This document shows positions 44,386 through 49,293 of a DNA stretch of 64,000 nucleotides, one piece after another. How positions within the stretch are numbered: position 1 is the first letter of the stretch; the number at the start of each line of letters is the position of its first letter. The DNA is from Nitrosopumilaceae archaeon (GTDB taxonomy: Archaea > Thermoproteota > Nitrososphaeria > Nitrososphaerales > Nitrosopumilaceae). The notes below the pieces were generated by a model, which saw nothing but the letters and a program-made list of their open reading frames with translations, made no database searches and was not told where the DNA came from. The stretch spans positions 1,472,001 through 1,536,000 of the forward strand of contig CBDCCK010000002.1 of the NCBI GenBank assembly GCA_965214835.1, read 5' to 3'. The position numbers and the translations under genes are program-made.

Positions 44386-45370
44386 TCAAAGCATCTCCCT
44401 CATCAGATCCACAAGGGACTCGGCCGCCTTGTCGTTTGTGAGGTTCTCCAACGTGTGCCTTTTTCCGCGCGCCGCTATCTGCTCCCACTTTGGATCATCC
44501 GGAGAGGCCAGGTATTCTTCGAACCTTTTTTTGTAGTTCTTAGAGTCGATAAACACGGCGTTCTCCCCGTCACGGAATCCCAGATGTCCGCAGTCGCTTT
44601 CCTCTGAGACCTGCATGAATGTCAGGCATCCGGCAGCCGTGGACTCGTAGTACTTGACGGCGGGAAAGTACCTTGATGCAGCTATGGCTGCCCTGTACCG
44701 TGACAGGTGTGTAATAAAGTCCGGATGTCCGCCGTGCACACACGGCCCCGAATAGTCAACATATGGCAGGTTTTTGCATTTTCTCCTCAGTTTATACTGA
44801 TGCCAGATATAGGCCTCCGTGGGTCTTAAAACACTATTTTTCAGCAAATTGATGATCTTCATCCCCCCCTAGCCTGCCGGTGAGCAGGATCTGATCCTTC
44901 TTCCTGTCTTTGAATGCAGGCCCCCTGGGCAAATCGGGCTCGACGCCGTATGTTATCGTCTTGTATTTGAAGCTGCTTGGAAAGTACTTGTAAAAGTAGC
45001 TCCGTGGCATAAAGTTGAAACAGCAGTCGATCTTCCATTTTTCGTGAAATCCAATCAGATCCCAATGTCTTATACGGTGGGGATCGTGCGTATGGGCGAT
45101 CACCGGAATGTCAAGCTTTCTGACGTTTTCCAGGTGGGGCGTGCTCATGTCGCTGTTGGTGCACAGTATGACGTCATATCTGCCCCTGAGCTTTGCCGCA
45201 TCAAAGCTCCGTTCTGCGGGAAAATAGCCCATCTGCAGATGCCTGTTTCTTTTCAGGGCGTGAAAGAAAAAATAGTACCTGTTGTTAATGGAGTTGCTTT
45301 TGTTATAGTATCCCCACGACGGCCTGTAGATAAAGGCCGCCCTGATCTGGTTTTCTTCGGATTCGCTCAT
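44386..45370 (-). pseudogene. Glycosyltransferase-like (CgeB/Glyco_trans_1_2-like) gene split by a frameshift at a G7 tract
   Basis: ORFs 44834..45370 and 44386..44862; KYYESTAAGCLTF, GFRDGENAVFI. Confidence 0.7.
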
Positions 45371-45408
45371 TTTGACCTCCTTGGCTGGGAATCCTGCCTT
45401 TTTATATT

Positions 45409-45488
45409 AGACCTTATGCATAATCGACCTGAATGAGGCGAGTTTGTTCGCAATAATCCTAGATCTGAACCGATTACGCATAAAGTCT
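45409..45488. mobile_element. MITE family D (80 bp), 3-bp ATT duplication
   Basis: TIR AGACCTTATGCATAATCG / CGATTACGCATAAAGTCT; the empty site is seen in the duplicate arm at ~50730. Confidence 0.85.
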
Positions 45489-45589
45489 ATTTTACAGCCT
45501 CATGCGAAGTCTAATGCCTCTGGGTTTCATCTGAATTGCAATCCCAGCTGCAACTTCAAGCCGTTCGACCATGATGATCTGGCGTAGTA

Positions 45590-45766
45590 TCTACGTCAGC
45601 CATCTGTTCATCTTTACCATCTTTATCTCGCCTCTGCGCAGCATGACGCGTATGGACTTTTGCAGCTCGCCGACGGTCCTGTACAGGCGGTTTGCAGTCG
45701 CCTTTTTGACCCCACGCCACTGCCCCTCTATCGGGCTCAGCTCCGGCGTGTACGGCGGCAGGAATT
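45590..45766 (-). pseudogene. IS630 C-terminal remnant
   Basis: Homologous to 40740-40916 (FLPPYTPELSPIEGQW). Confidence 0.75.
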
Positions 45767-45772
45767 AGGCGA

Positions 45773-47221
45773 CATCCATCCATGGTAAAACGCCCGCCAG
45801 TAACATGGCAACGTTCCTTTCGTCTTCTGATCCGTGCCTAGTCGGCCGGGCCGTGCTTTATAGCTAACGCTAGCAATACGCACGAGCCAGTCCTGTCGCA
45901 CCTGCCAGGGTGCGGCCGATCATTGGGTGGGTGGGGGATGGAAGGTGGTAATCCTATGCCGTTCCCACCAGTTCTGTCACCCTCTTGATCTTCCTGTCGT
46001 ACAGTGCAGCATTGCGCGATGAATACGCAGTCTTTGTCGTCAGCATGTGCCAGATTATCCTGAGCATCTTGTTTGCAACATGCGTTATCGCTATGACGTG
46101 GCTGTTGCCGTTCCTTTTGCGGATCCTCTCGTAGAACTCTTTCATCCTGTCGTCGTGCTGTGCGGCGACGTTGGCTATCTGGCCCATCAGCCATTTGATC
46201 CTGCGGTTTGCATCCTTTTTCATGCGGCCGTGGTACTCGCGGTCCCCAGACTGGTACACCCGGGGACACATGCCGGCCCAGGACACCAGATGATTCGGTG
46301 ATGGAAACCGGGTTATGTCGCCGATCTCTGCCAGCAGCAGCATTGCAGCAAACGAGTCTATCCCCGTCATACTCAGCAGCAGCTTTGCGTCCTCGTTCAG
46401 TCCCGCCTGTCTTCCTATGTCCTCCTCCATCTGGCCTATCTCCTCTGTGACCGATGCAATCCTCCGGGTACAGCTTGCCAGTATCCTGTTGTCGTTTGGC
46501 ATGTCCAGTTTTGTCTCGGACAGCTTCCGTATGGCCTTCCTAGAGTACATCGTGGATGCATCTATGGTTATGTCGTACTTGTCAAGCCAAGCTGTGCAGC
46601 CCGTTTACGACTGCGGTCCTCTCCTGCACCATCCGTATCCTGTACCTCATCAGCTCCCTGACATCCCTCAGGTCTGGAGGGGCCACGTAGCATCGTGGTA
46701 TGATTCCGGCCCTGAGCGTGTCGGTTATCTTCCTTGCGTCTATCGGGTCAGTCTTTACGCTGGTCTCCGATACTATCTTCATCTTGAGGGTGTTTGCAAG
46801 CAGTATGGGGATATGCTGATCCTCGAACGCCCTGAACGTCTTCAGCCACGTGTTGCCCGTTGACTCGCACGCGGCCTGGCACCTTTTGTACTCTTTTTTC
46901 AGCCTGGCTGCAAGCCTTGCTGCCTCCTTGTACGTGTTGTCATACGAGCCCTCCTCCAGTACGTGTCCCTTGGCGTCGATGACGCACACTACACATCTTC
47001 TCTTTCCAATGTCTATTCCTATGTTTATCAATCCTTTTGTTTCACCTCCTCTCGGATCATGGTTCGACGGATCAGAAGCTGCAGTCATCCATCAGTGCGC
47101 GAAGCACAGGAACACAGCAGCGCGGATATCCCCATTCAACTACGAGTGCGCGAAGCACATGAAAATGAAGGGGTTGATCCATCACCCTGACTACGGCGGG
47201 GGTGTTTTTATCATGTGTTCA
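45773..47221 (-). mobile_element. IS110-family element with CA core at both ends; transposase (~47031..45954) frameshifted near 46587
   Basis: IGIDIGK, CESTG, KTDPIDA, TGID, WAGMCPRVYQSG; CA at 45773-45774 and 47220-47221. Confidence 0.88.
47060..47200 (-). ncRNA. Predicted IS110 bridge RNA (target-binding and donor-binding loops)
   Basis: Two identical hairpins (AGTGCGCGAAGCACA at 47094-47108 and 47145-47159) inside internal loops whose guides match the element ends and the right flank. Confidence 0.8.
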
Positions 47222-47229
47222 ACTACTGC

Positions 47230-47322
47230 TATAGTGACGATTAAAAGTTTTTGAGCGCATGTGGGCATAAGCTACGCTGGAAGGCGCCTTTTGATGATCA
47301 AAGACTTTTAATCGCCACTATA
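47230..47322. mobile_element. MITE family C (IS630-type, TA flanks)
   Basis: TATAGTGACGATTAAAAGT / ACTTTTAATCGCCACTATA. Confidence 0.8.
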
Positions 47323-47343
47323 GGAGAAGAATTCCTGATACAC

Positions 47344-47485
47344 ATGACTGATATCATAACGTGGCCCAACTTCTTCTATGTGGCCCCTCAAAAGACAGGA
47401 ACGACTACGATGTACCATGTTCTGAGGGGGATCCGTGAGATGTATGTACCTTCCATGAAGGAGATGGCTTACTTTACACGCCGTA
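47344..47485 (+). pseudogene. Sulfotransferase N-terminal fragment
   Basis: WPNFFYVAPQKTGTTTMY...KEMAYF resembles the 5'-PSB PAPS-binding motif; homology is lost afterwards. Confidence 0.65.
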
Positions 47486-47844
47486 TCACCAAGAAGCAGT
47501 CCTTGGGAATGTTAAACATGGTTTTATCTGGAGCTCGGTCTTTTTTAGAGGTTCGCTGCCTGCCGGACCTTGAAAGGTTGTTTAGATTTGCCATGATTTT
47601 TGACCATACCCGACTAATGTTGAAAAATCAGGTTTTTAAGTGGAACTGGGACATTAACTGGTGTTTGTTCCCCTTGGGACCAGGTTGTGGCCGATGAGGC
47701 CAAGGAGCTGATATCCCGTAGATGTAGGTTCGTCGGCATACTGCCCAACGGCAAGGTGGTGCTGGAAAGGCAGGACGTGAACCGCAGTAGGTTCACATCT
47801 GCAAAGACTGGATTTAAATTGTCTTGGGAGTCATCCTGCAATCA

Positions 47845-49293
47845 ATGCCACCAATTGTCCCCAAAAAGGTAGGCGGCTCACAGTATGTCATAGAGCCTGA
47901 TTCTACAAATGACATGAGGATCCCCGTCAGGATATATGCAAGCGAGGATCTGATCTCAAAAATGATGACGGATCGAACCCTGAAGCAGGCCGCAAACGTC
48001 GCATCCATGCCCGGAATCGTAAGCCACGGGGTGGTACTGCCTGACGGCCACGAGGGATACGGGTTTCCTGTCGGAGGCGTCGCGGCCATGGATGCAGAGG
48101 AGGGAATGATCAGCCCCGGCGGCGTGGGATACGACATCAACTGCGGGGTCAGGCTGCTCCGGACAAGCCTTTCTGAAGATCAGGCCCGCGCAAGACTAAG
48201 GGATCTGGTCACTGACCTGTTCGGATCCATTCCCTCGGGCGTGGGCTCCAAGGGGGCAGTAAGGTTGAGCCGCTCCCAGCTAGACGAGGTCCTCGTCCGC
48301 GGAGTCAGCTGGGCAATCGATAACGGGTACGGGACTGCCGGCGACAGGGACGTCTGTGAGGAGAATGGCGAGATCAGGCAGGCAGACCCCGGCAAGGTCT
48401 CTGACAGGGCCCGAAAGCGGGGTGCGCCGCAGCTTGGAAGCCTCGGCTCTGGCAACCACTTTTTGGAGATTCAAAAGGTGGCAGAGGTTCATGACGAGGA
48501 GGCGGCCGGACGGATGGGGCTTGAGGAGGGCTCCATTACCGTGCTGATCCACTGCGGCTCCCGCGGGCTTGGCCACCAGGTATGCAGCGACTATCTCAGG
48601 ATCTGCGAGCAGTCCATGCGGAAATACGGCATTGATCTGCCAGACAGGGAGCTTGCATGCGTTCCAAACGCGTCCGAGGAGGGTGAATCGTACAGGAAGG
48701 CCATGTTTGCGGCGCTGAACTTTGCCTGGAGCAACCGCCAGATGATTACGCACTGGACGAGAAGGTCGTTTGAGCGCGTCTTTGGGATGTCCGAGTCAGA
48801 CCTGGACATGAGGCTGGTATACGACGTATCCCACAACATTGCCAAGGTTGAAAAACACAGGGTGGATGGAGGGGAGAGAAGCCTCGTCGTGCACAGAAAG
48901 GGTGCAACGCGGGCGTTTCCTGCCAATCGCGAGGAGGTCCCGCAAAGGTACCGCGATATCGGCCAGCCCGTGTTCATTCCCGGCTCCATGGGTACTGCAA
49001 GCTGGGTGCTGCTCGGCCAGCCCGGATCCATGGATCTGAGCTTCGGCTCCACAGCGCACGGGGCAGGCAGGACGATGTCAAGATCAAGGGCGCGCAGGAG
49101 CTTTACCGAGCACGACGTCAAAAAGTCCCTGGGCGACAGGGGCATCTACATCAAGGCGCTGACCAGGGACGGCGTGGTCGAGGAGACTCCCCAGGCCTAC
49201 AAGGACGTCGACTCCGTCGTGGACGTCTCGCACGGCTTGGGAATCGCAACAAAGGTCGCCAAGCTAACCCCGGTTGGAGTGATCAAGGGTTGA
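47845..49293 (+). CDS. rtcB: RNA-splicing ligase RtcB
   Basis: LPDGHEGYGFPVGG, GYDINCG, LGSGNHFLE, HCGSRG, SHNIAK, HRKGATRA, HGAGR. Confidence 0.97.
   Translation: MPPIVPKKVGGSQYVIEPDSTNDMRIPVRIYASEDLISKMMTDRTLKQAANVASMPGIVSHGVVLPDGHEGYGFPVGGVAAMDAEEGMISPGGVGYDINCGVRLLRTSLSEDQARARLRDLVTDLFGSIPSGVGSKGAVRLSRSQLDEVLVRGVSWAIDNGYGTAGDRDVCEENGEIRQADPGKVSDRARKRGAPQLGSLGSGNHFLEIQKVAEVHDEEAAGRMGLEEGSITVLIHCGSRGLGHQVCSDYLRICEQSMRKYGIDLPDRELACVPNASEEGESYRKAMFAALNFAWSNRQMITHWTRRSFERVFGMSESDLDMRLVYDVSHNIAKVEKHRVDGGERSLVVHRKGATRAFPANREEVPQRYRDIGQPVFIPGSMGTASWVLLGQPGSMDLSFGSTAHGAGRTMSRSRARRSFTEHDVKKSLGDRGIYIKALTRDGVVEETPQAYKDVDSVVDVSHGLGIATKVAKLTPVGVIKG

Follow-up and report, generated by a model that had tools for sequence, protein, structure and literature searches.

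An insertion sequence of an ammonia-oxidising archaeon, the subject of this work, very probably chooses its insertion sites by reading them with an RNA of its own. It lies on the minus strand of a stretch of 64,000 nucleotides (nt) that we analysed as a whole (the window, G000:C2:1472001-1536000), in the 3.22 Mb genome of a Nitrosopumilaceae archaeon, which encodes an archaeal AmoA. To judge from its sequence, the element belongs to the IS110 family in the broad sense and would place its DEDD recombinase by means of a self-encoded guide RNA with two loops, a bridge RNA or seekRNA. What we observe in its favour is the anatomy of element and RNA, the pairing rules of the guides, their covariation with flanks and with element ends, covariation within the stems, empty sites, duplication of a TG, natural retargeting and conserved residues of the recombinase. 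An initial annotation of the window had reached the core of this reading, namely that an ammonia-oxidising archaeon has an IS110-family recombinase guided by RNA, that the target loop comes before the donor loop and that the target can be decoded; the other copies, the empty sites, the retargeting and AmoA bear it out. Coordinates are positions of the window unless a contig is named, and the element is read on the minus strand.

Boundaries and core of the element

The host genome contains nine full-length copies of the element, several partial ones and many end fragments. Eleven copies were compared: that of the window and those named here c10, c12 and c2 to c9. Every one of them starts with TG-AACACATGATAAAAAC and finishes with ...TTTTACCATGGA-TG, and these shared ends place the right end of the window copy at 45777. 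The features that follow are those of the element as a whole.

45777 to 47221, minus strand: whole IS110-family element, 1445 nt with the TG core at both ends (alignment of the eleven genomic copies, occupied against empty sites)
47220 to 47221, minus strand: core dinucleotide TG (CA on the plus strand), left-end copy; TG stands at both junctions in the window copy, c10 and c2 to c8, and once in empty sites
47195 to 47210, minus strand: left subterminal inverted repeat TAAAAACACCCCCGCC, complementary, with gaps, to 45786-45800
45786 to 45800, minus strand: right subterminal inverted repeat CTGGCGGGCGTTTTA
45777 to 45785, minus strand: right-end tip CCATGGA followed by the core TG, an end conserved in the eleven copies

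The initial annotation had proposed a comparison with other genomic copies, and these do have the same boundaries and the same TG core. It had, however, set the end at 45773, and the end conserved with the ten other copies is ...CCATGGA-TG at 45785-45777. The 8/9 match to a guide that it reported at 45781-45773 is present in the sequence, only 4 nt too far out: a tandem GATG provides four extra bases that extend the match to the donor guide. As for the core, no dinucleotide but TG occupies the two junctions throughout the three groups of copies. A GT core would be possible for the window copy considered alone; it was rejected, as only TG fits c10 and c2 to c8.

Subterminal inverted repeats of about 12-19 nt characterise the window copy and its relatives, imperfect in the former and cleaner in the latter (11/12 in genome G152, 18/19 in G304). 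The non-coding left end, 190 nt long and 5' of the recombinase gene, contains the RNA; the non-coding right end covers about 175 nt 3' of the gene.

A predicted guide RNA with two loops

The predicted RNA would begin about 38 nt inside the left end and run for about 120 nt. An outer stem surrounds two internal loops, and the same small hairpin is found in both. Two identical hairpins, each in an internal loop closed by a stem, had already been described in the initial annotation, and all of these features are present in the sequence.

47056 to 47198, minus strand: predicted bridge/seek RNA region (match of covariance model R1 at G000:C2:1519056-1519198, 139.6 bits)
47183 to 47175 and 47074 to 47066, minus strand: outer stem, GAUGGAUCA with UGAUCCGUC
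47173 to 47170 and 47133 to 47130, minus strand: closing stem of the target loop, CCCC with GGGG
47160 to 47167, minus strand: 5' guide of the target loop, CAUUUUCA, which complements TG-AAAATG (core and right target half), 8/8 against the right flank of c10 and the 23 empty sites
47146 to 47158, minus strand: hairpin of the target loop, GUGCUUCGCGCAC, all four pairs of which covary
47137 to 47143, minus strand: 3' guide of the target loop, GUAGUUG, which repeats the left target half and the core, 7/7 against the flank at 47226-47220
47121 to 47117 and 47082 to 47078, minus strand: closing stem of the donor loop, GCUGC with GCAGC
47109 to 47116, minus strand: 5' guide of the donor loop, UGUGUUCC, which complements the start of the left end, TG-AACACA, at 7/8, the core-proximal base being mismatched
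47095 to 47107, minus strand: hairpin of the donor loop, GUGCUUCGCGCAC, identical to that of the target loop
47086 to 47093, minus strand: 3' guide of the donor loop, GAUGGAUG, which repeats the right-end tip ATGGA and TG
47205 to 47212, minus strand: conserved A/T-rich box GATAAAAA, about 26 nt upstream of the outer stem, its position kept in all lineages examined

By its position, the box GATAAAAA could be an archaeal TATA box, which would place a promoter inside the left end of the element.

Folding of the region, a check that the initial annotation had suggested, reproduces the helices but reaches only z = -1.77 against shuffled sequences; the real structural support is comparative. We aligned 22 related RNAs from 17 genomes over five helices and 26 pairs (alignment A1). 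In these helices 93.5% of the cells pair, against 79.7% in column shuffles (0/500 reach the observed value) and 31-51% with slid partners. Changes on both sides occur in 17 of the 26 pairs, for a total of 71 such cells against 18.5 in shuffles. The GCUGC/GCAGC stem is invariant, and the compensatory changes are found in the other four helices.

The two small hairpins show a behaviour of their own. They share their stem in 16 of the 22 RNAs, though this stem varies from lineage to lineage (GUGC, GGGC, GCAC, CGGC, GGUC), and they evolve in concert to the point that an irregular pair in one hairpin, be it G-U in G117b or a C-U mismatch in G291, recurs in the other. Equal stems fit with both hairpins being read by a single protein surface.

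A covariance model built from the 22 RNAs (R1) finds 25 loci in the host genome. It also recognises the RNA upstream of the recombinase gene in 13 archaeal loci outside its training set. It has no match in the bacterial IS4321 and Klebsiella loci, nor in the right non-coding end of about 175 nt.

Guides and flanks in the host genome

The copies of the host genome fall into groups with different guides. In the window copy, c10 and c12, the target-loop guides are CAUUUUCA and GUAGUUG (slightly decayed in c12); the left flank of this group is (C)AGTAGT-TG, and the right flank of c10 is TG-AAAATG. A second subfamily, made of the eight copies c2 to c9 with 98-99% mutual identity, has GUUAUGCA and CCUGUUG (UUUGUUG in c3), a left flank ..CCTGT-TG with the variants TCTGT and ACTGT, and in c2 to c8 the right flank TG-CATAAC; the right end of c9 falls outside the matched stretch. 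From these guides and their matching flanks follows the rule that core and right flank have their reverse complement in the 5' strand of the loop, and that the 3' strand repeats left flank and core. The difference between the subfamilies is concentrated in that loop: the RNAs of c10 and c2 differ at 9 of the 20 positions of the target loop, against 5 of 123 elsewhere (Fisher p = 4e-6).

Covariation of guide and flank among copies was precisely what the initial annotation had proposed to look for, and two subfamilies with differing guides and correspondingly differing flanks display it. The annotation had matched the flank CAGTAGT-TG at 47228-47220 (left flank here, right flank on the plus strand) to the 3' target guide, and we find the same. 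The target that it predicted, GTAGT-TG-AAAATG in gene orientation, occurs exactly 23 times in the genome, and c10, the sister copy with an unbroken gene, sits exactly in one such sequence.

Empty sites are numerous. There are 23 exact occurrences of GTAGTTGAAAATG; for CCTGTTGCATAAC the count is 4 exact ones and 30 with at most one mismatch. All of them are the tips of inverted repeats of other repeated elements, and the core TG occurs there once. Each window-type target forms the tip of CAGTAGTTGAAAATGTACCCC, which is the inverted repeat in an insertion sequence (IS) of about 1.36 kb that encodes a DDE_Tnp_1 transposase of 415 amino acids (aa).

G000:C2:506940-508303 and 22 further sites: target IS of about 1.36 kb, with inverted repeats CAGTAGTTGAAAATGTACCCC

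The target of the second subfamily, CCTGT-TG-CATAAC, lies at the tips of other repeated elements (tips ..TAG-CCTGTTGCATAAC). Among these we noted a pair of about 74 bp resembling a MITE, or miniature inverted-repeat transposable element, at 3110706/3110779. In this genome the family has been naturally retargeted to other insertion sequences, at their terminal inverted repeats.

Guides, flanks and ends across genomes

Homologues of the c10 recombinase (359 aa) at E <= 1e-20 are present in 71 of 401 genomes sampled from the class, a tally that includes one unpublished genome, G282, which contributes nothing beyond this count. Among the 351 genomes with a completeness of 90% or more and a contamination of 5% or less, 63 have them; counted by genus, it is 23 of 81. 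From this resource we gathered 20 further copies from five genomes and 30 loci from the homologue search, and the same two-loop RNA lies 5' of the gene in every case examined, at 36-62% protein identity.

Removal of three duplicate places left 27 insertions in 12 genomes to be scored by fixed patterns, and these comprise 18 distinct guide pairs. The 3' guide agrees with its own left flank at a mean of 4.33 positions out of 5, against 1.48 for the flanks of other elements; for the 5' guide and its own right flank the mean is 4.19 out of 6, against 1.82. In both cases, 0/100,000 permutations reach the observed value. Taken one by one, 25 of the 27 insertions match the 3' guide at 4 or 5 of 5 positions, and 11 of 25 match the 5' guide perfectly. 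Switches of guide within a genome are also found in four other genomes (G152, G304, G036 and G117), as separate events.

The donor loop obeys a similar logic with respect to the element itself. Its 3' guide matches the right-end tip and TG at 7/7 in all ten distinct donor types, and covaries with that tip (ATGGA, ATAGG or ATAGA); in the window, the donor guide AUGGAUG fits the corrected right end at 7/7. In the 5' guide of this loop, only the five distal bases stay complementary to the left end in relatives.

The best match outside the class, with 35% identity, is a haloarchaeal IS110-family element on a plasmid of Haloarcula sp. (locus L083, NZ_CP142029.1, 252576-255938). It has an upstream RNA with a weak R1 match (16 bits), in which, by eye, the 3' guide GAGAUUG corresponds to left flank and core.

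Could these regularities be explained otherwise? The initial annotation had called the element IS621-type, which would put it into the IS110 group taken strictly. Its RNA does lie upstream of the gene, with the target loop before the donor loop, as in IS621 (Durrant et al., 2024, Nature 630:984). Yet guides taken in that geometry match the flanks at chance (means of 1.06/5 and 1.31/5), and the protein is remote from that of IS621 (E = 1.6e-8, in two pieces). Upstream though the RNA may be, its guide order is that of an IS1111-type seekRNA and it comes with long subterminal inverted repeats (about 12-19 nt), so that we hold the IS621 assignment to be very unlikely.

Just as improbable, in our opinion, is the idea that the structured region does no more than regulate the recombinase mRNA in cis as its leader, by hiding a ribosome-binding site for instance, and that its resemblance to flanks and ends is a by-product. 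The minimum-energy fold pairs a 5' C-rich stretch with GGAGGUG upstream of the start codon, and leaders of this sort have been described for ISPpu9 (Pares-Guillen et al., 2025, NAR 53:gkaf668). A leader, however, would not account for the covariation of loop bases with the DNA that flanks each copy, and it leaves unexplained that the whole RNA is kept in elements of 369-375 nt devoid of an open reading frame (ORF). The roles of leader and guide are, besides, not mutually exclusive. That the loops act as DNA, say as mimics of target and ends to which proteins bind or DNA pairs, has the faintest chance of all: no RNA run is listed that contains the stretch, but compensatory changes keep four of the five helices paired on one strand, which is the signature of a folded RNA, and homologous systems have been reported to use RNA (Durrant et al., 2024; Siddiquee et al., 2024, Nat Commun 15:5235).

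Proposed mechanism, and what weighs against it

If a two-loop RNA indeed guides the recombinase, loop 1 would read the target: its 5' guide of 8 nt would pair with TG and right half on the top strand, its 3' guide of 7 nt with left half and TG on the bottom strand. Loop 2 would read in the same manner the joined ends of the excised element. By analogy with homologous bacterial systems, excision would yield a circle; recombinase dimers sitting on the two loops, on the model of IS621 and ISEc11, would then join the circle junction and the target, and strand exchange at the TG core would leave a TG at both junctions.

Several points weigh against this scheme. Expression of the RNA, its binding by the recombinase, the circular intermediate and the chemistry are steps that we infer by analogy. 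In Logan DNA contigs from four runs of one study we saw no junction of right end with left end, a result that is uninformative either way, with short unitigs and many alternative flanks at 47223/47228. The initial annotation had called for a search with covariance models. An Rfam 15 scan of 45000-48000 gave no family match, returning chance-level matches only, none near the gathering score, and that Rfam holds a model for such RNAs has not been established. The fold of the single sequence, as said, beats shuffles just marginally. The permutation figures overstate independence, the sequences compared being related, and the patterns used to extract guides were designed after examples had been seen. 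The pairings themselves are uneven: the 5' target guide matches at most 2/6 positions in 3 of 25 insertions, and the donor 5' guide matches the left end at just 5-7/8, its core-proximal bases often unpaired. The right flank of the window copy matches the guide-predicted AAAATG at 2/6. Finally, an unbroken recombinase frame is found in only one of the nine full-length copies, and in none of the four copies of a second family described below.

The recombinase and its frameshift

Two halves in different frames make up the recombinase gene of the window copy.

46582 to 47031, minus strand: recombinase part 1, DEDD/RuvC-like domain, with a TTG start at 47031 and a TGA stop at 46584-46582 (PF01548, E = 8.3e-26)
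45954 to 46583, minus strand: recombinase part 2, in the +1 frame, Tnp domain with the conserved serine (PF02371, E = 1.5e-26)
46582 to 46593, minus strand: frameshift site AGC UUG GCU UGA, one extra base with respect to c10, common to 10 of 11 copies

The Pfam matches span 47088-46582 for PF01548 and 46550-45954 for PF02371. The uninterrupted c10 protein scores 234 bits with the NCBIfam model NF033542, 'IS110 family RNA-guided transposase', the cut-off of which is 140. When it is aligned to the solved chains of IS621, with 8WT6 among its structures, and of ISCro4, its motifs IGID, CESTG, KTDPIDAR and YQSG meet matching, similar motifs. Within these, the D of IGID, the E of CESTG, the D..D of KTDPIDAR and the serine of YQSG are what we take to be the catalytic residues, by comparison with IS621.

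The initial annotation was right to see a 1-bp frameshift in the recombinase, which however is not particular to the window copy: with the sole exception of c10, all copies compared carry it. Its context reads AGC UUG GCU UGA C where c10 has AGC CUG CUU GAC, and it spans both subfamilies. Among the carriers, the ratio of non-synonymous to synonymous substitution rates (dN/dS) is 0.22-0.36 in both halves, which are thus under purifying selection, and the second frame has no stop in any of the 11 copies. The frameshifted subfamily (98-99% identity) is the most recent multiplier, and c10 (G000:C2:514459-513383) has the only unbroken recombinase gene found in the host genome.

We asked whether the frameshift is conserved elsewhere and must answer in the negative: the closest homologues in other genomes (at most 62% identity) have unbroken frames, which makes of it a local feature. 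A search of genome contigs with a single protein gave one locus, L031, the recombinase gene of which is cut after about 96 codons and which is uninformative on the frameshift.

Three readings come to mind. Programmed +1 frameshifting could take place at GCU UGA C. Alternatively, the c10 protein could mobilise the copies in trans; it would have the same scaffold and the same ends to recognise. The third of these readings has two separate polypeptides; an ATG stands 10 codons into the second frame. We place mobilisation in trans slightly above recoding.

State and surroundings of the window copy

The copy in the window is flanked by remains of other mobile elements.

47222 to 47228, minus strand: left target half CAGTAGT, tip of the inverted repeat of another IS, with the sequence of the 3' target guide (GUAGU+UG) and of the left half in the 23 empty sites
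45591 to 45776, minus strand: non-cognate right flank, in which GATG, and after it TCGCCTAATTCC, precede the 3' part of an IS630-like transposase gene

That the flank on this second side (left on the plus strand) had been rearranged was suspected in the initial annotation, and its 2/6 match to the guide says as much. With its reading frame interrupted and its right flank non-cognate, the window copy is probably not autonomously active. The IS630-like piece at 45591-45776 (minus strand) is a diverged 3' fragment (...FLPPYTPELSPIEGQW...RWLT*) that directly adjoins the right end of the element; intact IS630-like copies differ upstream from it. It might have been taken for a remnant of the cognate target IS, were it not that the latter encodes DDE_Tnp_1 and not an IS630-type protein. 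The junction motif TCGCCTAATTC is also found beside several miniature elements elsewhere, and may be the tip of another repeated element. On the other side, the left target half is adjoined by a repeat of about 97 nt (47229-47325, minus strand), ending in ...AATCGTCACTATAG and present at some 30 other places in G000:C2, which is the end of yet another repeated element. Farther away, a 489-aa ORF at 47824-49293 (plus strand) encodes a putative RtcB-type RNA ligase, judging from its motifs.

Miniature derivatives and a second lineage

Four elements without an ORF, 369-375 nt long, consist of the left end with its complete two-loop guide RNA joined to a right end (..TTTTAACATAGATG).

G000:C2:639989-640363 (plus strand), 2139577-2139947 (plus strand), 2955988-2955616 (minus strand) and 3124522-3124154 (minus strand): ORF-less guide-RNA elements

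In at least two of them the donor guides agree with the right end of the element itself, and the insertion site of one is a CTGT-TG-CATAAC target. They are miniature derivatives that carry the guide RNA.

The genome also has a second lineage of the IS110 family, in four copies.

G000:C2:2665840-2667340, 2137450-2135950, 685680-687180 and 1315110-1313610: second IS110-family lineage

Its DNA is 65% identical, its ends are TG-AACACGGGTTAAAAC ... TTTTAACATAGA-TG, and it possesses a guide RNA of its own; the recombinase frame is broken in all four copies.

Novelty and significance

In a full-text literature search, no paper came up that treats the guide RNAs of the IS110 family in ammonia-oxidising archaea, with the reservation that archaeal IS1111 elements, or such elements with an upstream RNA, may figure in the supplements of Durrant et al. 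(2024) and Siddiquee et al. (2024), outside that search. Both bacteria and archaea are said to have IS1111 elements in abundance (Siddiquee et al., 2024), and a preprint of 2026 mines such guide RNAs over 144K bacterial and archaeal species. The mechanism is therefore not new; it is the combination of features which is uncommon, and that combination is well supported.

Recombinases using bridge or seek RNAs form a two-year-old class of programmable DNA-rearranging enzymes, and the examples characterised in the papers that we cite are bacterial. What the archaeon offers is a natural experiment, in which one scaffold serves at least two target specificities in one genome, with many empty sites to compare and the same logic returning in 71 of 401 genomes of the class. 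It extends to archaea the guide rules of the IS1111 type, and it tells us that the position of the RNA and the polarity of its guides can be uncoupled. We know of no genetic systems for ammonia-oxidising archaea, and the element is a candidate native tool for these organisms.

One may go further and picture, in the ammonia-oxidising archaea, a distinct and self-diversifying lineage of RNA-guided recombinases derived from IS1111-type elements. Its guide RNA would have moved upstream, under an internal promoter of the archaeal TATA type; its most successful subfamily would rely on a programmed +1 frameshift at GCU UGA C; and guide-only elements of 370 nt, devoid of an ORF, would ride on the recombinase. 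We regard this composite picture as doubtful. Were it true, copying and retargeting would have the guide RNA as their unit instead of the protein gene, with inverted repeats belonging to other insertion sequences as the targets here.

Comparison with known systems

Where does the element stand among its relatives? The c10 protein aligns with the IS4321 transposase over residues 4-336 with 22% identity (BLASTP, E = 2e-14), and only marginally with IS621 (37.6 bits, E = 1.6e-8 in two separate pieces) or ISCro4 (likewise two pieces, E about 1e-8). Placement within the IS110/IS1111 family is tentative, based as it is on pairwise comparison at 20-25% identities with few named references.

With IS621 the element has much in common. 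The DEDD and serine motifs of that recombinase, presumably catalytic, align with those of the archaeal protein. As in the archaeal element, a single RNA made of a target-binding loop followed by a donor-binding loop is located in the left end of IS621, upstream of the recombinase. Both strands around the core are read by each loop, the 2 nt of this core taking part in the two pairings, and the donor guide on the left-end side pairs irregularly (Durrant et al., 2024). The differences are the order of the guide strands within the loops, which is reversed in the archaeal element relative to gene orientation, and the length of its guides, 8 nt for the 5' and 7 nt for the 3' one. Furthermore, IS621 has a CT core and subterminal repeats of 2-3 bp (Durrant et al., 2024), whereas the core here is TG and the repeats are long.

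The IS1111 group (ISEc11, ISKpn4, ISPa11; IS4321/IS5075) has, as here, a DEDD recombinase and subterminal inverted repeats. Such repeats are its hallmark in both Durrant et al. (2024) and Siddiquee et al. (2024), at about 11-13 bp, which the archaeal element matches, if imperfectly in the window copy. In the target-reading part of the seekRNAs of this family, the complement of the top strand comes first, in 5' position, then a hairpin and then the match to the bottom strand, an order that is reversed in IS110-type RNAs (Siddiquee et al., 2024); the archaeal RNA follows the former. It departs from the group in its location. Long subterminal inverted repeats together with a right-end RNA mark IS1111 for Durrant et al. 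(2024), and Siddiquee et al. (2024) place the non-coding region 'usually' downstream of the gene, with ISMtsp17 (upstream) and ISHvo10/ISAcp5 (long, on both sides) as exceptions; the RNA of the archaeal element is upstream. The extensions that its ends have outside the inverted repeats are longer as well, some 7 and 5 nt past the core where the IS1111 group has 7 and 3 nt. Lastly, the host here is an archaeon, so that the promoter must be of the archaeal type.

IS4321 offers a close parallel. In its two copies on plasmid R751, the downstream region contains AAAACGGAA, the reverse complement of the right flank TTCCGTTTT, then a hairpin, then UAUAUUUUC, which is the left flank. This is the guide order of the archaeal element, and by eye the target loop again comes before the donor loop. 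The right-end tips are similar too, ..CCATAGAT in IS4321 and ..ACATAGATG in the archaeal relatives. To this we may add the choice of targets: IS4321 and IS5075 insert into the terminal inverted repeats of transposons, as the title of Partridge and Hall (2003) has it, and the archaeal elements likewise go to the terminal inverted repeats of other mobile elements.

The short elements have a counterpart in MITEPpu9, a non-autonomous derivative of the IS110 family (Pares-Guillen et al., 2025). Like them, it is bounded by the ends of the IS, exists in several copies and is presumed to move in trans; it carries the small RNA Ssr9, where the elements of 369-375 nt carry the full two-loop guide RNA. 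Concerning archaea, the survey of Vaysset et al. (2024, bioRxiv 10.1101/2024.06.21.599552) counts 662 archaeal homologues of IS110 recombinases, in several clades mixed with bacterial ones, and the protein studied here is one such homologue. The text of that survey, as accessible, gives no description of archaeal RNAs, targets or guide polarity, and Thaumarchaeota and Nitrososphaer* are absent from its main text. Set beside these systems, the element of the window combines the guide order and the subterminal inverted repeats of IS1111 with an RNA placed upstream of the gene, in a lineage that is, as far as the genomes sampled indicate, widespread in ammonia-oxidising archaea.

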